From a phage: a stretch of 64,000 nt of DNA. The position numbers and the translations under genes are program-made. Under the pieces are notes generated by a model. The model was not told the DNA's origin, ran no database searches, and was given only the letters and a program-made list of their open reading frames with translations. Of the stretch, positions 1,828-54,877 are shown piece after piece (position 1 is the stretch's first letter; every line of letters begins with the position of its first letter). Location: the NCBI GenBank assembly GCA_024790105.1, contig GCA_024790105.1_3053.1. One strand, given 5' to 3'.

Positions 1828-2093
1828 TAGTATTTTTCCTCTGGTTGGAACACAGCACGGCAAGCCCACATACTGGCTTCTTTGAGTTTCGTTTTAGCAA
1901 TAGTTAACTGATCTAGGCTTTCAGCATAATTCTTTGCGAATTCGTAGTCTTCACAATTATCTAGTGCTTCCCAGAATTCATCATATAAAGCGTCAAAGAT
2001 AAGTCCTAAACGAACTTCAGCGTCTTTGATAGCATTCACTTTACCGATTTTCTCTTCAGTATGTGGTTTATAACCCTTAATATCTTCAATCAT
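1827..2093 (-). CDS. hypothetical protein
   Basis: ORF in operon; start chosen at ATG overlapping the upstream stop (ATGATTGA). Confidence 0.4.
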
Positions 2094-2307: not shown

Positions 2308-2669
2308 TACAAACTCTCGGTAAAGGTACGAGCGATAACGTCGCGCTGCTGTTCCGGAGTCAGAGAGTTAAAGCGAACTGCATAACCGGATACACGGATA
2401 GTCAGCTGCGGATATTTTTCCGGATGCTTAACTGCATCTTCCAGAGTTTCACGACGCAGAACGTTAACGTTCAGGTGTTGACCACCTTCAATTTTAACTG
2501 TAGGCTGTTGCTCAATTTCAATTTCACGGGCATGCAAACCGTAGAAAATTTCTGGGTCTACAAAAGAGTCCTCTTTAAAGGTTTTAGAGACAATAATTCG
2601 TGCTTGAATACCATCTTCAAAATAAATAGTACCTTTATGTGTGCCTTCAAGAATTTGATATGCTTTCAT
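2307..2669 (-). CDS. grcA: autonomous glycyl-radical cofactor (GrcA/YfiD-like, PFL spare part)
   Basis: 120 aa; C-terminal ~60 residues ...[61 protein letters not shown] carry the glycyl radical motif RVSGYAV and match remembered E. coli GrcA/PFL C-terminus. Confidence 0.85.
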
Positions 2670-2676
2670 ATAAACC

Positions 2677-3591
2677 TCAATTAGAAAATAAATTTATCCA
2701 AGATTGTTCTTTAATTAAAAATGGCTCAGAATCATATGCCATTAAACTCTGTGTGATTAGTCCTTTAAAAGGCCCATCAATAAATTCCATGGTAAAATAT
2801 GGAATTTTATTCATTAGCCGTGCATTAGGAGCAGTACACAAAACTCTGCATCCTTTGAATACGCCTTTTTGTAATTTGTATTGCTTGGGATAAAATTCGC
2901 TTAAAATGTTGTTATTTGCCAAAATTTCAAAATGATTCACCAATTTATTTTTAATAGTTTTTGGCGAAAAATAAAGATATTCGAAAAGCTGAGTGTCTGT
3001 CATCATTGCATTCCGATTACGAAAAAACTGTGGACGAGTAATACCACCAATACAACATTTAATATTACAGCAGCAGTGTACAGTGTCAATATGGACACTA
3101 TAAATCTTATCCATATCAGGAGATTTGACAGGCTCATCAATTATATACAAAATTCGCGAAAGCGATAAACCTCTGAACTTGCTTCCTTTATTACCAATAA
3201 AACTGCGCACAGAATCAGTAAATAAACGAAAACGTATATCATCATTAGAATAACGCGAAAATTCCTTTTTAATGTTATTTGCAGAAATTTTAGCGTAAGC
3301 TGAAGTATTAGAAAGAACAATAACTGTTCCACCGTCATACAACCAATTAGCGGCAAAATTAGTTACTGCAATTGATTTACCGGATTGACGTCCACCATCT
3401 ATACGAAGTGTGCAGTACTGTTTAAGTAATTCTTCAAATGGTGGGATATAATCGTTTTTACAAATTTCTTCTACTCTAGCGTCAGAATGGTGTGTAAAAG
3501 CATTCATCAGGGATAGATAAGGACCAGTTAAAAATGTTCTCATTTTATTCTCTCTAAATTTGGGCCATTCCATGGCGCATGAATTGTCCAT
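2677..3591 (-). CDS. P-loop NTPase, terminase-ATPase-like Walker A/B, function unknown
   Basis: Walker A GGRQSGKS and Walker B LYIIDEP; ORF opens with GTG at 3606, first ATG at 3591; Cys cluster HCCCNIKCC. Confidence 0.5.
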
Positions 3592-3623
3592 TTCTGTATT
3601 TACCACTCCAAGTAATTATGAAT

Positions 3624-3653
3624 ATACTATCACAATTCTAGGAGAAAGTAAAC
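3624..3653 (-). promoter_or_regulatory. early-type promoter module upstream of the P-loop ATPase gene
   Basis: minus strand GTTTAC - 18 nt - TAGTAT; 26-nt core tatcacaattctaggagaaagtaaac repeated at 4023..4048. Confidence 0.45.
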
Positions 3654-3655
3654 TG

Positions 3656-3958
3656 TTATTTATCTTTAATTACTTTAGCTGCTTCGATAGCCGCTTGCTG
3701 AAGGTCATCCATAGACATACCGAATTTAGAAGCAAAGTTATCAATTTTCTTTTCGACAGCATTCAAAGGCTTGGCCTGTTTACCTTCATTAGCGCCAGGA
3801 AGAGCGAGAATACGCTCTTTGTCAATATAAAGGCTTACAAGTTTCTTACGGTCTTTATCGGACAAATCATGAAATGAATGGGCCTTTTTATTTATAGCGG
3901 CTTCTAATTTACCTGCACTCACTCGCGCTTCAGTAATAAATTCTTGATATGTTTTCAT
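3656..3958 (-). CDS. internal head protein with capsid targeting sequence (IPII/IPIII-like)
   Basis: 100 aa; N-terminus MKTYQEFITEA matches the T4 internal-protein capsid targeting sequence with a following L-x-E protease site; located next to e. Confidence 0.65.
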   Translation of the reverse strand: MKTYQEFITEARVSAGKLEAAINKKAHSFHDLSDKDRKKLVSLYIDKERILALPGANEGKQAKPLNAVEKKIDNFASKFGMSMDDLQQAAIEAAKVIKDK

Positions 3959-4020
3959 ATGTTTCCTTTAAATGTAAATATTTTAATTGGTAATTGACTG
4001 TTCAAATAACTGTGAATATA

Positions 4021-4049
4021 TATTATCACAATTCTAGGAGAAAGTAAAC
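4021..4049 (-). promoter_or_regulatory. early-type promoter module upstream of the internal-protein gene
   Basis: minus strand GTTTAC - 17 nt - TG-ATAATA; repeat of the module at 3624..3653. Confidence 0.45.
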
Positions 4050-4053
4050 AACT

Positions 4054-5022
<969 letters not shown>

Positions 5023-5041
<19 letters not shown>

Positions 5042-5511
5042 TCAGTGATAAAGTTATTTAAATTTTGAGTATATTTCTTTTCATCAAAAATCTTTTGCTG
5101 TCTGCGTAACCGCCATGGCATTTCAATGAACATACGCCATATTCCTGATAATACTGCTGCTGTAAAAATATTAACAAGTATAGTTAAAAGAACCCAATCT
5201 CCTATTCTGTCCATTGGATTTTTTATAAAAAAGTAAAATACGAACGATGATATAGGAAGACTAATGATATACCACAGAAGAACCTTCTTATCTGTGAACC
5301 AATCAGCATTCGTTAACTTAGCGCGACCGTTTTGAATACATACGAACTTATCATCTGTTACAGTAAATGGCTTAGCTGCTTGATATCCCATTCTAAACTC
5401 CCTAATCAACAAATTTTTCATATCTTCGGAACAACCATTCCAGTCAACTCTATCAACTGAAATGCCATCATCCCCATCATCTAAATCATACCAGCGAGTT
5501 TTTAAAATCAT
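5023..5511 (-). CDS. hypothetical membrane protein (e.2 position)
   Basis: 162 aa with two hydrophobic helices; start/stop overlaps with neighbours. Confidence 0.5.
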
Positions 5512-5870
5512 TTAATTTTCCTACAATCACTCACAAACTCTTCCATTGATTCTTTTTCAATATAAGACATGTAGCTATTATATTCTTTTAATTGTATTTT
5601 GTAATCTTTTTTTCTTTGCCAATTTATTTTAAAATTATCATAATGAAAATATAACATGGTACCAAAGAATGAAAATAATGAAATAATTTTAGTATAGTGA
5701 AGTTCACTCCAAACTTCTATTATATTTACTGTGCCGTCAATGTTTAAAATAAGACAGTCAATTAACAATCCAAAAAGACTACCCGCAAGAGCTGCAGCCA
5801 ACGCCACAGCAAAAATTAAAAATGACTCAGGAAGCGAATATTTGACTTTATTTAGTTTTGGCTTTTGCAT
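5508..5870 (-). CDS. hypothetical membrane protein (e.3 position)
   Basis: 120 aa, two predicted transmembrane segments. Confidence 0.5.
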   Translation of the reverse strand: MQKPKLNKVKYSLPESFLIFAVALAAALAGSLFGLLIDCLILNIDGTVNIIEVWSELHYTKIISLFSFFGTMLYFHYDNFKINWQRKKDYKIQLKEYNSYMSYIEKESMEEFVSDCRKIK

Positions 5871-6244
5871 CGTGATTCCTTAACAAATTTCATAATTTCA
5901 TCAAATTCATACGCAGCAAGTTTAAGCTGATGTTCCTTTTTAATCTTTTTACACTGAGCTTTCCATTCGCGTACGCGTTTACGATAATGTCTTCCTTGAT
6001 ACCAGTATCCTACCCAATTTACAGGTACTAATAAAAATGGAACTATTAATGGAAGAATTAGCATTAATACAAGTATTTCGCCAGAATCAATATCAGTCAT
6101 AACATCTAAAACACCTCCAATAATCAATAGAATTACAAATGATATGAGTATAACAGGACCTATTAACACATCAGTAGAAATTATCTGACGCTTTAATTCA
6201 TATTTCAGCGGTTTACTTGGAAGGTATAGTGATGGTTTTGACAT
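5852..6244 (-). CDS. hypothetical membrane protein (e.4 position)
   Basis: start chosen at second ATG preceded by AAGGAG; hydrophobic helices. Confidence 0.45.
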   Translation of the reverse strand: MSKPSLYLPSKPLKYELKRQIISTDVLIGPVILISFVILLIIGGVLDVMTDIDSGEILVLMLILPLIVPFLLVPVNWVGYWYQGRHYRKRVREWKAQCKKIKKEHQLKLAAYEFDEIMKFVKESRCKSQN

Positions 6245-6821
6245 ATTCTCTACACTCCTTAACAAATTTTTCTAGTAATAAATCACTTTCAAAATTAGGA
6301 TTTTCCACTAATTTATCAAAAAGATCATCAACAATAGTTAAGATATTCTTTTTACTAAGAATACGTTTATTTTCATGCTTCGTTTCAGAATCAACTATAA
6401 GAGTAAAGAAATATTTCTTGCCCTGAAATTTTACAGTAGTATCAATATAAAATAAATTTGACTTTTGTAAATTACGTCTAAACCCCGCGTCACTTAAACT
6501 ATAAATGCCAAGATAGTCATAATCGTCGTTTAAATAACAAACTGTCCATTCAGGAGAAATGAAATCAGTAAATTCAACATCAAAATCACATGTCAATGAA
6601 TTAATTGATTCAATACTGTTAATAAGTATTCCAGGACGTATTAAAGACTTTTTACCTCTATAAAATCTTCCAGAAAGACTTTCGTCAGTTTCATATGAAG
6701 ACCCCCAATAGTAATTACGTCCTTCTGCCATACGTTTAAGAACATTTAGTAATTGGTCTGGAACATCAACATGTCTTTGGAACTCTTCAAACATTGAATT
6801 GAAATCATTTTGCATTCTCAT
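6213..6821 (-). CDS. hypothetical protein (e.5 position)
   Basis: 202-aa ORF, no recognisable motif. Confidence 0.45.
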   Translation of the reverse strand: MRMQNDFNSMFEEFQRHVDVPDQLLNVLKRMAEGRNYYWGSSYETDESLSGRFYRGKKSLIRPGILINSIESINSLTCDFDVEFTDFISPEWTVCYLNDDYDYLGIYSLSDAGFRRNLQKSNLFYIDTTVKFQGKKYFFTLIVDSETKHENKRILSKKNILTIVDDLFDKLVENPNFESDLLLEKFVKECREYVKTITIPSK

Positions 6822-18328: not shown

Positions 18329-19195
18329 ATGAAAAAATCTAACACAGTTCAATTTAGATACATATATAAAACAACCGTTACTAATCCGAAAGGATTAGTA
18401 CGTGTTTATATTGGTAAACATGAATCTAGATATTTTGATTTAGAAAATGATAAGTATAGAGGTTCCGGTGATTATATTAAAAAGATACGTAATAAACCTG
18501 GTTATAAAATAGATTTTGAAATAATTGAATTTGTTTCTACTTATGAAATTCTCAATTCAAGAGAAAGATATTGGATTTCGAAATATAAATCATCTGATAT
18601 TCTATGTACCAATATAAAATCCGGCGGTGATGGTTTTTCATCCGAAGATTTGAAGAGAATGTGGTCTAATCCTGAATATAGGAAAGCTCAATTGAAGGCA
18701 TTAGCTAAATCAACGTCAACTAAAGAATTTTCAGAGAAAATATCTAAAATAAACAAAGAAAGATGCGCATCGCCAGAATATCGAAAGAAAATGAGTAATG
18801 CGATGAAAACTGCTTTTGAAAATGATCCAACATTAAAAATTCGTATTTCTAATACCGTTAAATCTTTATGGAAATCCGATGAATATAGAAACAAATTAAT
18901 TAATCATCCAGGAAAAATAGAAGGAACGAAACAATCATGGAATGATCCTTTGATAAGAAAATCGAGATTAGATGCTAGAAATAAAAAACTAAGATCAGTT
19001 GAACCTTGGATTAGTATAGAAAAAGTCAAAAAACTTTGGGAGGATTTGGGAAAACCACATCCACAGAAATACAAATGGTTTAGAGAAAAAGCAATTGAAC
19101 ACGACCTCCCGGATGTAAGTTATAACGCAATTTTAAAAGCGTTGAAAAAATGTGATTATAAATTTACATCATTAGAGAATTCAACAATTGGCTAA
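18329..19195 (+). CDS. GIY-YIG homing endonuclease (Seg-like, possibly SegC equivalent)
   Basis: 288 aa; N-terminal GIY-YIG module FRYIYKTTV...RVYIGKHES; repeated W-x-NPEYRK motifs similar to SegB/SegE. Confidence 0.8.
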   Translation: MKKSNTVQFRYIYKTTVTNPKGLVRVYIGKHESRYFDLENDKYRGSGDYIKKIRNKPGYKIDFEIIEFVSTYEILNSRERYWISKYKSSDILCTNIKSGGDGFSSEDLKRMWSNPEYRKAQLKALAKSTSTKEFSEKISKINKERCASPEYRKKMSNAMKTAFENDPTLKIRISNTVKSLWKSDEYRNKLINHPGKIEGTKQSWNDPLIRKSRLDARNKKLRSVEPWISIEKVKKLWEDLGKPHPQKYKWFREKAIEHDLPDVSYNAILKALKKCDYKFTSLENSTIG

Positions 19196-32541: not shown

Positions 32542-35052
<2,511 letters not shown>

Positions 35053-35093: not shown

Positions 35094-39251
<4,158 letters not shown>

Positions 39252-41262: not shown

Positions 41263-41269
41263 TTGATAT

Positions 41270-41285
41270 GGGGGCTTCGGCCCCT
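41270..41285 (+). promoter_or_regulatory. UUCG-tetraloop hairpin between gene 18 and the HNH gene
   Basis: gggggcttcggccccta hairpin 8 nt after the gp18 stop and just upstream of the HNH SD. Confidence 0.45.
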
Positions 41286-41301
41286 ATTCTCGAGGAATCA
41301 A

Positions 41302-41919
41302 GTGATTATTTCTAAATTTATTAAAGTGAAAATTGTACCATCAAATTTTAAACATTATCAATCAAAGGGTTATAAATTAACACCTCTTGGAGCGGTTAAA
41401 CATGGATTTAGGTATTATGAAATTGATGTTAAAGTTGAAGACATTAAAGGTAGTACCGCGTATGTAAAATGCCGTTGCGATAAATGTGGAATTGAATATA
41501 ACCAACGCATTGGAAGAAACACTGATATTTGTCGTGATTGCCGTCATAAAGATAAAATGCGCAATAATTCATATGGTTCCGCGAATAAAGGAAAAACAGT
41601 AGAATGTATGCATGGCGTAAATCATCCAAGATGGAACCCAAATAAATCTGAAATGTGTGAATATATTTCATTGGTATATAAAGAAACTCGTAAGCATAAG
41701 AAAATTTGGTCAAAATGGCCAAATGCTGATAAAATAGGAGTGTGTGGTACAAAAGGCGCTTACCAACTTGATCATAAGGTATCTATCAAATACGGTTTTG
41801 ATAATTTAATTCCTGCTAAAATAATTGGCGGTATTAATAATTTAGAAATAATCACTTGGGAATCTAACCGAGAAAAATCAAAAAGAAATAGTGTAGATCT
41901 TTGGGATTTACTAGAATGA
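41302..41919 (+). CDS. HNH homing endonuclease inserted between genes 18 and 19
   Basis: motif QLDHKVSIKYGFDNLIPAKIIGGINNLEIITWESNREKS plus Cys4 zinc motifs; no in-frame ATG near the 5' end, start assigned to GTG at 41302 preceded by GAGGA (alternative TTG at 41263). Confidence 0.7.
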   Translation: MIISKFIKVKIVPSNFKHYQSKGYKLTPLGAVKHGFRYYEIDVKVEDIKGSTAYVKCRCDKCGIEYNQRIGRNTDICRDCRHKDKMRNNSYGSANKGKTVECMHGVNHPRWNPNKSEMCEYISLVYKETRKHKKIWSKWPNADKIGVCGTKGAYQLDHKVSIKYGFDNLIPAKIIGGINNLEIITWESNREKSKRNSVDLWDLLE

Positions 41920-53368: not shown

Positions 53369-54877
53369 ATGGATATTAAAGTACATTTTCACGACTTCAG
53401 TCATGTACGCATCGATTGTGAAGAGAGCACGTTCCACGAATTAAGAGATTTCTTTTCGTTTGAGGCCGATGGATATAGATTTAACCCTCGCTTCAGATAT
53501 GGCAACTGGGATGGACGAATCCGTCTTTTAGATTATAATCGTCTTCTTCCATTCGGCTTAGTCGGGCAAATTAAAAAGTTCTGTGATAACTTTGGCTATA
53601 AAGCCTGGATTGACCCACAAATTAACGAAAAAGAAGAATTATCAAGAAAAGATTTTGATGAATGGCTTTCTAAATTAGAAATCTATTCAGGAAATAAAAG
53701 AATTGAACCACATTGGTATCAAAAAGATGCAGTGTTCGAAGGATTAGTTAATCGTCGTAGAATTCTTAATCTTCCAACATCCGCTGGTAAATCGTTAATT
53801 CAAGCTTTGCTTGCGCGATATTATTTGGAAAATTACGAAGGTAAAATTCTTATCATTGTTCCAACAACTGCTCTAACAACTCAGATGGCTGATGACTTTG
53901 TTGACTATCGTTTATTCAGTCATGCAATGATAAAGAAAATTGGTGGCGGAGCATCAAAAGATGATAAATGTAAAAATGATGCACCAGTCATTGTTGGTAC
54001 ATGGCAAACTGTAGTTAAACAGCCCAAAGAGTGGTTTTCTCAGTTTGGAATGATGATGAATGATGAATGCCATCTTGCTACAGGAAAAAGTATTTCATCT
54101 ATCATATCAGGTTTAAATAACTGCATGTTCAAATTCGGTTTGTCTGGTTCATTACGTGATGGCAAAGCCAATATCATGCAGTATGTTGGAATGTTTGGTG
54201 AAATATTTAAGCCAGTAACGACTTCTAAGTTAATGGAAGATGGACAAGTAACTGAGCTAAAAATTAATAGTATTTTTCTTCGCTATCCCGATGAGTTCAC
54301 TACTAAATTAAAGGGAAAAACTTACCAAGAAGAAATAAAAATTATTACTGGGCTCAGTAAAAGAAATAAATGGATCGCTAAATTAGCTATTAAGCTTGCG
54401 CAAAAAGATGAAAACGCTTTTGTCATGTTTAAACATGTATCACATGGTAAAGCTATTTTCGATTTAATTAAAAATGAATACGATAAAGTTTATTACGTAT
54501 CAGGGGAAGTTGATACCGAAACCCGCAACGTAATGAAAACTTTAGCTGAAAACGGTAAAGGAATAATTATAGTAGCTAGTTATGGCGTATTTTCTACTGG
54601 TATTTCAGTTAAAAATCTGCATCATGTTGTTTTAGCGCACGGCGTTAAATCAAAAATTATTGTATTACAAACAATCGGTCGTGTATTACGTAAGCATGGT
54701 TCTAAGACAATAGCAACAGTCTGGGACCTCATAGATGACGCGGGTGTAGTTTCTAAATCAAAAACATCTTCTAAAAAATACTCGCATTTAAACTATCTTT
54801 TAAAACATGGACTTGATCGTATTCAGCGTTATGCTGATGAAAAGTTTAATTATGTGATGAAAGAGGTTAAACTTTGA
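53369..54877 (+). CDS. uvsW: UvsW helicase (SF2)
   Basis: 502 aa; Walker A TSAGKS, DEAD-like MNDECH. Confidence 0.9.
   Translation: MDIKVHFHDFSHVRIDCEESTFHELRDFFSFEADGYRFNPRFRYGNWDGRIRLLDYNRLLPFGLVGQIKKFCDNFGYKAWIDPQINEKEELSRKDFDEWLSKLEIYSGNKRIEPHWYQKDAVFEGLVNRRRILNLPTSAGKSLIQALLARYYLENYEGKILIIVPTTALTTQMADDFVDYRLFSHAMIKKIGGGASKDDKCKNDAPVIVGTWQTVVKQPKEWFSQFGMMMNDECHLATGKSISSIISGLNNCMFKFGLSGSLRDGKANIMQYVGMFGEIFKPVTTSKLMEDGQVTELKINSIFLRYPDEFTTKLKGKTYQEEIKIITGLSKRNKWIAKLAIKLAQKDENAFVMFKHVSHGKAIFDLIKNEYDKVYYVSGEVDTETRNVMKTLAENGKGIIIVASYGVFSTGISVKNLHHVVLAHGVKSKIIVLQTIGRVLRKHGSKTIATVWDLIDDAGVVSKSKTSSKKYSHLNYLLKHGLDRIQRYADEKFNYVMKEVKL

Follow-up and report, generated by a model that had tools for sequence, protein, structure and literature searches.

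The question raised by this locus is what kind of gene is represented by a 309-codon ORF that carries the motifs of a P-loop ATPase and lies among the early genes of a T4-like phage. The window, that is, the whole 64-kb stretch of DNA that was analyzed, is a segment of a Tequatrovirus (T4-like) genome. The ORF (2677..3606, minus strand, GTG start) belongs to a minus-strand gene series with the order vs, vs.1, regB, vs.3, vs.4, vs.5, vs.6, 309-aa ORF, ipII, e and nudE. The initial annotation had described it as an orphan gene coding for a single ATPase with terminase-like Walker motifs and a Cys cluster, and the three motifs on which this description was based (GGRQSGKS, LYIIDEP and HCCCNIKCC) were all found in the minus-strand translation. 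The results presented below indicate that the ORF is a rare allele of known genes and no new gene, most probably a frameshift fusion allele of vs.8 and vs.7, two conserved adjacent genes of the T4 early region. In this allele a leader is followed by vs.8, a frameshift-derived linker and vs.7.

Identification of vs.8 and vs.7 in the 309-aa ORF

Comparison with the PHROGs profiles divided the ORF into two parts. Residues 24-195 matched phrog_1488 (E = 2e-74, profile positions 2-172 of 177) and residues 201-309 matched phrog_2049 over its whole length (E = 3.6e-53, profile positions 1-105 of 105). When the T4 proteins were compared with the window by tblastn, the first part was 95% identical to T4 Vs.8 (95-97% across comparisons) and the second was 99% identical to T4 Vs.7 over all 109 residues, both matches being in frame -2 of the window. 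The Vs.8 part, a stand-alone terminase-like ATPase domain that ends in ...RPQFF, is encoded at 3022..3543 (minus strand) and comprises ORF residues 22-195, which are residues 1-174 of Vs.8 when numbering starts at the conserved ATG (3543). The vs.7 gene, with 109 codons and the stop codon, occupies 2677..3006 on the same strand; PF26834 (Phage_T4_Y06J) was recorded for the fused product.

The T4 annotation has vs.8 (216 aa) and vs.7 (109 aa) at the same position, with an ATGA overlap between them. The initial annotation had placed denV and ipIII in this interval of T4 instead, but that map was incomplete, since vs.7 and vs.8 occupy exactly the position of the ORF, followed towards ipII by denV, and ipIII is flanked by ipII and e. 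Neither denV nor ipIII was found anywhere in the 64-kb window by tblastn of the T4 proteins. The gene is also no orphan: Vs.8 homologues were found in 1,009 phage records, which extend from Tequatrovirus to phages of Klebsiella, Serratia and Enterobacter, with identities of about 31-36% at the far end. Homology to T4 proteins is thus confident, but the T4 proteins in question were uncharacterized until 2026.

The first 21 codons of the mechanical ORF (3544..3606, minus strand) are probably a non-coding leader. The PHROG profile begins at M22, the annotation of phage JEP6 puts the start of Vs.8 at MRTFL, and the upstream stretch shows indels and frame changes among T4, JEP6 and the window. The spacer between ipII and vs.8 (3607..3660, minus strand) contains GTTTAC-N18-TAGTAT, which we take to be close to the T4 early-promoter consensus, and is possibly an early promoter; a generic sigma-70 scan flagged no promoter upstream of vs.8. 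The 13 leading bases of the spacer, AATAACAGTTTAC, are the same as those ahead of denV in T4. On the other side of the ORF, vs.6 codes for a glycyl-radical (GrcA-like) protein and the product of vs.4 contains the anti-CBASS domain Acb2_Tad1_hairpin (E = 9e-20). These neighbours are consistent with an accessory, host-interaction neighbourhood.

The vs.8-vs.7 junction and its ancestral state

In a four-way DNA alignment the coding strand reads CAGTTTTTTCG in the window versus CAGTTTTTCG in T4, JEP6 and W143, and likewise CAGTTTTTTCGTAATCGG in the window versus CAGTTTTTCGTAATCGG in the other three. The difference is one extra T, which lengthens a T5 run located five codons ahead of the stop of vs.8. 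The window thus has a homopolymer of six bases at 3022..3027 (A6 on the plus strand, T6 on the coding strand), one more than its relatives, and this is the frameshift that fuses the two genes. The frameshift keeps the two Phe residues and replaces the native C-terminus of Vs.8, VIGMQ and the stop codon, by the linker RNRNA (3007..3021, minus strand) and the 109 residues of Vs.7. In-silico deletion of one T restored ...RPQFFVIGMQ followed by two stop codons, and then a separate Vs.7 beginning with MMTDTQ. What had been annotated as a single ATPase gene is therefore vs.8 and vs.7 joined by one base.

In the native gene pair the ATG of vs.7 overlaps the stop codon of vs.8 (ATGA), a layout typical of genes coupled by termination-reinitiation. 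In five divergent phages (Klebsiella phages EI, RCIP0102 and K6, Serratia phage LC53 and Dhakavirus PSD9) Vs.8 ends in ...PLFF(V/I)(I/L)G(M/I/L)Q and a stop codon; an overlapping vs.7 homologue follows in all five, and likewise in Gaprivervirus TH54. The C-terminal tail is kept across 36 members of the Vs.8 family, and the codons for the two Phe residues vary by genus (TTTTTC, TTCTTC or TTCTTT). The window departs from the family in both respects: it does not have the C-terminal strand PLFF(V/I)(I/L)G(M/I/L)Q followed by a stop, and instead of a protein of about 165-196 aa with a separate overlapping vs.7 (family product of about 100 aa) it has a single frame of 288 or 309 aa. That no slippery run is conserved and the zero-frame tail is speaks for two translationally coupled genes as the ancestral state. 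The vs.8-vs.7 pair was conserved and translationally coupled in every Straboviridae lineage examined, and the native genes code for separate, translationally coupled proteins that very likely act together.

In the window allele, ribosomes initiating at the vs.8 ATG (3543) would synthesize a 288-aa polypeptide, Vs.8(1-174)-RNRNA-Vs.7. The ribosome-binding site and the ATG of vs.7 are untouched, so that free Vs.7 may still be formed. These two elements overlap the codons for I-G-M-Q of Vs.8, whose conservation could partly reflect them.

Two other readings of the single frame were considered. According to one, programmed -1 ribosomal frameshifting on the T-run normally makes some Vs.8-Vs.7 fusion, and the window hard-wires it. 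It is true that vs.7 lies in the -1 frame relative to vs.8, that the two genes are always adjacent and that a U-rich CAG UUU UUC stands five codons before the stop. However, the T-run differs between genera as described above, G_UUU_UUC is not a canonical X_XXY_YYZ heptamer, the ATGA overlap is that of termination-reinitiation, and VIGMQ is conserved as amino acids with synonymous changes, indicating that the zero frame is read; programmed frameshifting is for these reasons very improbable. The chance is smaller still, and practically negligible, that the ORF is one new orphan gene for an ATPase, with a C-terminal domain of its own and a Cys metal site, and stands where denV and ipIII would be. 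Such a gene would agree with a continuous 309-aa frame containing Walker motifs and with the database searches, in which no Pfam or NCBIfam family reached threshold for the fused ORF and PADLOC returned nothing, but not with halves that are 95-99% identical to T4 Vs.8 and Vs.7 at the same T4 position, with more than 1,000 phage records carrying vs.8, or with a Cys cluster that is not conserved.

Rarity and origin of the extra T

The 76-nt junction of the window was found identical in 0 of 391 phage records, and in all 40 matches listed the span was 75 nt. The same picture emerged from protein collections. All 16 homologues in a collection of 5.8 billion clusters are 173-196 aa long, and when 1.84 billion representatives were searched exhaustively with the family profile, only 41 members came up, without a fusion among them, the full-length ones (165-185 aa) matching the profile to its end. 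The T6 pattern gave no match in IMG/VR or in the JGI metagenomes, in each of which the T5 pattern gave three; in GTDB genome contigs neither T6 nor the T5 positive control gave a match. The exact Vs.7 of the window (109 aa) appears in 398 collection blocks as a gene called on its own, and it overlaps a vs.8 of 179-196 aa in 10 of 10 places among the matches listed; the fused protein is indexed in a single contig.

One other record of the exact fused protein was found, a Logan contig of 5.4 kb (run SRR21296878), which matches window positions 2462-6591 (4,130 nt) at 100% identity and carries T6. The Logan contig may share reads with the window assembly, so that its independence as a sample is not assured. 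Other genes of the window served as an internal control: about 60 T4 genes (vs to 24.3) were compared with the window by tblastn and gave full-length matches in one frame each, ruling out general indel errors across the window, which contains 62 A/T runs of six or more. An apparent break in gp17 of the window proved to be an insertion, with no frameshift.

These data bear on whether the extra T is a mutation or an isolated sequencing or assembly error in a homopolymer, in which case the true phage would have the normal two-gene vs.8/vs.7 arrangement. An error would account for a T6 allele that is unique among the 391 junction-matching records and absent from IMG/VR and the JGI metagenomes. The site is a T5/T6 run, a typical place for sequencing errors, the extra T destroys a motif conserved family-wide, and several deposited vs.7 sequences elsewhere look frameshifted, suggesting that errors are common at this locus. 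On the other hand, a second assembly, the Logan contig, shares T6 and is identical over 4.1 kb, and none of the other conserved genes compared, about 60, is frameshifted in spite of the 62 A/T runs, whereas a platform prone to homopolymer errors would be expected to break more than one gene. We therefore consider that this isolate probably does carry the extra T as a true mutation, and that an isolated error is unlikely, though its chance is appreciable. A real fused allele would be tolerated because the vs.8/vs.7 module is accessory.

Probable effect of the insertion on the Vs.8 protein

The AlphaFold model of native Vs.8 (P0003), obtained with the 36-sequence alignment, had a pLDDT of 86 and a pTM of 0.84. 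It contains five predicted strands, the last of which is formed by FFVIGM at residues 172-177. According to the established topology of ASCE P-loop ATPases, the strand next in sequence after that of Walker B is placed between the Walker B and P-loop strands, and by analogy the tail strand of Vs.8 would lie beside the P-loop strand. Since the window allele has lost the hydrophobic half of this strand, VIGMQ, the ATPase fold of Vs.8 is probably compromised in the fusion, the domain being destabilized or inactive. The Vs.8 part of the window modelled without the tail, using a 17-sequence alignment, had a pLDDT of 64, a decrease that is confounded by the shallower alignment. A Foldseek search of this tail-less model against the PDB gave nothing significant, the best hits (E = 0.016) being isocitrate dehydrogenases and helicases. 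The FFVIGMQ segment, which occurs family-wide and is predicted to form a beta-strand of the ATPase fold, defines the true end of the domain.

Conservation of the Vs.8 motifs

The alignment of 36 sequences revealed five hallmarks of the Vs.8 family, GRQ(S/T)GK(S/T), SxRSF, FRG, hhhh(D/E)EP and the C-terminal PLFFVIGMQ. The window has both Walker motifs in the form expected for the family: Walker A (P-loop) is GGRQSGKS at 3373..3396 and Walker B with the catalytic Glu is LYIIDEP at 3130..3150, both on the minus strand. A KFRG motif stands just ahead of Walker B (3169..3180, minus strand), where hhalign aligned it to AVRG of gp17. Neither Walker motif varies among 17 close homologues, and both keep their form in the five divergent phages, with Walker B as hhhh(D/E)EP. 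Over the 36 sequences the G, R, Q and K residues of Walker A are at least 90% conserved, and several of the remotest members have lost Walker B; one of the Vs.8 copies, in phage K6, is without Walker A. The two motifs are thus no chance occurrences.

The Cys-rich loop HCCCNIKCC (3052..3078, minus strand), which the initial annotation had pointed out as a feature of the protein, fared differently. Its cysteines are missing in family members P0013-P0016 and in EI, LC53 and RCIP0102, and the cluster is absent in members below about 57% identity. The corresponding loop is also the only low-confidence one in the native model (pLDDT < 50). Judged from this variability, HCCCNIKCC does not represent a conserved metal site and is no family feature.

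Relationship of Vs.8 to the large terminase

The native vs.8 product is a stand-alone ATPase domain of about 179 aa that is derived from, or related to, the ATPase domain of the large terminase. In agreement with the terminase-like character originally ascribed to the Walker motifs, the Vs.8 part matched phrog_2 (terminase large subunit) with E = 2e-5. Weak matches to Terminase_6N of Pfam were obtained for 23 of the 36 family members (best member E = 6.8e-5); the ORF of the window itself scored 12.3 bits, short of the gathering cut-off of 22, versus 95 and 84 bits for the two halves of the window gp17. Alignment of Vs.8 to gp17 residues 1-360 by hhalign gave 86.8% (95 collinear columns that span Walker A, the RG motif and Walker B), versus 0.4% and 0.9% for two control P-loop proteins of the window, a 502-aa ORF (53369..54877), presumably the SF2 helicase UvsW from its length and position, and gp1. 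Both proteins have Arg-Gln in the P-loop before GK(S/T) (GGRQSGKS in Vs.8, SRQLGKTT in gp17), and in both Walker B is followed by the catalytic Glu (LYIIDE versus MIYIDE), as in the ATPase centre of TerL.

T4 gp17 was the first match of the Vs.8 family profile among PDB sequences, but with E = 0.022; direct BLASTP of Vs.8 against gp17 gave E = 0.82, which is not significant alone, and phmmer of the fused protein against the PDB gave noise only. The initial annotation had noted no recognisable nuclease domain and none was detected, with no Pfam match to the RNase-H-like nuclease domain (Terminase_6C) in the fused ORF. Vs.7 was also considered as a terminase fragment or nuclease and was rejected, with 0.2% by hhalign to full gp17 and no PDB match.

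A TerL gene would be expected in a late packaging cluster with the small terminase and portal genes. This locus is instead flanked by ipII and vs.6, within the regB-e accessory region, away from gp16/gp17 of the window (35921-39251). The fold of Vs.8 is common to terminases and SF2 helicases, but Vs.8 does not have the two tandem RecA-like domains and motifs I-VI of the latter. In BFVD we found many similar small stand-alone ATPase-like proteins from other large phages.

Putative function of Vs.8

In an AlphaFold 3 screen, Evans et al. (Nat Commun 2026, PMC13601566) came upon T4 vs.8, which they describe as an uncharacterized ATPase-like protein, homologous to the terminase ATPase domain and with Walker A and B conserved. 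They modelled it with ATP in the terminase pocket of Avs2 and found it toxic when co-expressed with the terminase sensor EcAvs2, a result of co-expression and not of infection (PMC13601566). The authors suggested that vs.8-like proteins might be anti-defence factors that Avs2 learned to recognise; vs.7 goes unmentioned in their paper (PMC13601566). Of the two roles proposed in the initial annotation, anti-defence or DNA-transaction factor, a link to defence is therefore plausible and partly shown.

By analogy with the terminase ATPase centre, native Vs.8 is predicted to bind ATP and probably hydrolyses it in the manner of terminases. Because neither a nuclease domain nor a second ATPase subdomain is present, Vs.8 is not, as far as its sequence can tell, a packaging enzyme. 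Its location in an early accessory cluster beside vs.4 (Acb2), together with the reported triggering of Avs2, suggests that its role is most likely in host interaction or anti-defence. We also considered that native Vs.8 may serve DNA transactions or packaging as an accessory, modulating or competing with gp17, gp16 or the portal, or acting as a small translocase or loader subunit. Vs.8 has kept all catalytic signatures of the terminase ATPase centre, its fold is shared with terminases and SF2 helicases, and the similar mini-ATPases in BFVD come from many large phages. This role is nevertheless unlikely for a 179-aa protein made up of one RecA-like domain, lacking a second subdomain as well as nuclease and DNA-binding modules, whose gene lies beside regB and Acb2 rather than in the late packaging cluster and of which a copy in K6 has dispensed with Walker A.

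The extra T might be a selected change, either an allele that escapes an Avs2-type sensor through a disabled or reshaped Vs.8, or a working single-chain Vs.8-Vs.7. We give selection only a slight chance. Were either version true, it would open a direct way to learn what the Vs.8/Vs.7 module does, and a working single chain would in addition be a natural "Rosetta-stone" demonstration of physical partnership. The window allele, a natural one without the last strand, could be used to probe whether an intact Vs.8 fold is needed for triggering Avs2, and to ask whether the vs.8/vs.7 module matters for phage fitness. The apparent orphan ATPase comes down to a pair of known T4 genes that a difference of one base has joined, one of them with a likeness to terminase that is already published.

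Comparison with known systems

The closest counterparts of the two halves of the ORF are the T4 proteins. T4 Vs.8, listed as [quoted passage not shown], is encoded at the same position, between ipII/denV and vs.7, and shares the Walker A, FRG and Walker B motifs with the window copy; the N-terminal extension of its 216-aa annotation is not conserved. The window copy differs in having no native VIGMQ and stop codon and in reading on into Vs.7. T4 Vs.7 (12.8 kDa) has the same position upstream of vs.6 as the window Vs.7, but in the relatives vs.7 is a separate gene, whereas in the window the upstream stop codon is missing and Vs.7 also forms the C-terminal domain of the fusion.

Compared with the ATPase domain of gp17 (Terminase_6N; PDB 2o0h), which has 360 aa, Vs.8 has about 179 aa, and it has neither the subdomain II nor the RNase-H-like nuclease of gp17; gp17 is encoded in the late packaging operon and Vs.8 in the early accessory region. 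SF2 helicases resemble Vs.8 in their RecA1 domains (Mfd, DDX1, RIG-I and others), but Vs.8 consists of one RecA-like domain with the Walker A and B motifs only. Native Vs.8 belongs with Ksap1 and Ksap2 among the non-terminase activators of Avs2 (Evans et al. 2026), from which the window allele is set apart by the loss of the last strand and the appended Vs.7.

Gene order around vs.8 and the vs cluster

No match to T4 denV, ipIII, ipI or e.7 was found by tblastn across the 64-kb window. In the region at 3607-4053 ipII directly adjoins e and vs.8 directly adjoins ipII, an order also found in the T4-like phage JEP6, while a 3' remnant of denV is kept in phage W143. Further along, e.2 (5023-5511, minus strand) is a single unbroken ORF of 162 aa, whereas in the T4T record it is annotated as split into e.2a and e.2b. 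This is the opposite of the vs.8/vs.7 case, in which genes that are separate in T4 are fused in the window.

Three genes downstream of the vs.8-vs.7 ORF, vs.4 (1830-2093, minus strand) encodes an Acb2/Tad1 hairpin domain (PF24729, E = 9e-20), and its product is the homologue of the anti-CBASS sponge. At least one known anti-defence gene is thus present in the vs cluster.

Relatives of Vs.8 and Vs.7 in other genomes

A chimeric Vs.8 homologue was found in the 261-kb Klebsiella phage vB_Kpn_AM_K6 (locus L010, 1773-2345). Its N-terminus is an internal-protein-like leader (MKTYQEFLNESR...), attached to the last two-thirds of Vs.8; Walker A is missing, and an overlapping vs.7 still comes after it. 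Loss of the P-loop is evidently possible in the Vs.8 family.

Another locus, L022, on a 489-kb contig (JAODFN010000001.1, assembly GCA_025336695.1), carries a DUF7412-vs.8-vs.7-vs.6 block with LysE and LysR genes of bacterial type immediately alongside. Either a bacterial genome contains a T4-like fragment here or the assembly is chimeric. The deposited or assembled vs.7 products P0017, P0019, P0022 and P0023, all from other genomes, are shortened and have out-of-frame tails 3' of short homopolymers. Frameshift variants, whether real or erroneous, are thus recurrent at this locus in other genomes.

A Foldseek search of BFVD revealed small uncharacterised proteins (about 140-185 aa) with a Vs.8-like fold in many unrelated large phages, including Proteus phiP4-3, Vibrio JSF10, Pseudomonas 201phi2-1 and Phabio, Erwinia jumbo phages and Klebsiella Menlow (E = 1e-7 to 1e-4). 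These proteins may constitute a wider class of stand-alone mini-ATPases.

Divergence and insertions in the structural gene region

Between 27031 and 32509 (plus strand) the amino-acid identity to T4 determined by tblastn was 85% for gene 10, 68% for gene 11, 64% for gene 12 and 82% for wac. The flanking structural genes are 98-100% identical to T4 and so far less diverged. The divergence of these baseplate and short-tail-fibre genes is consistent with an exchanged host-recognition module.

Three free-standing plus-strand ORFs resemble homing endonucleases, their putative class being assigned from motifs read by eye, and each lies in a gap that is nearly empty in T4: a GIY-YIG-like ORF between genes 5 and 5.1 (18329-19195) and HNH-like ORFs between genes 13 and 14 (33468-34280) and between genes 18 and 19 (41263-41919). 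The T4 genes segC and segD are missing in the window from their T4 positions.

Gene 17 (36399-39251, plus strand), coding for the large terminase, is interrupted immediately 3' of Walker B. The first ORF (36399..37292, plus strand) encodes gp17 residues 1-257, including the Walker B MIYIDE, with extra residues appended. The second (37866..39251, plus strand) begins with extra residues up to ...VESHN, which is joined to CAFIPNF, and continues with the remaining gp17. The Pfam domain Terminase_6N is split accordingly, with positions 2-106 on the first half and 105-214 on the second, and a 199-aa ORF resembling TnsA or endonuclease I (37279..37878) lies between them. The same insertion is found in 17 phage records, HY03, SG1 and JEP6 among them, where gene 17 is annotated as two terminase CDSs. 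The interruption has the appearance of a split intein whose N-piece is short, accompanied by a free-standing homing endonuclease, an arrangement similar to the AceL-TerL split intein.
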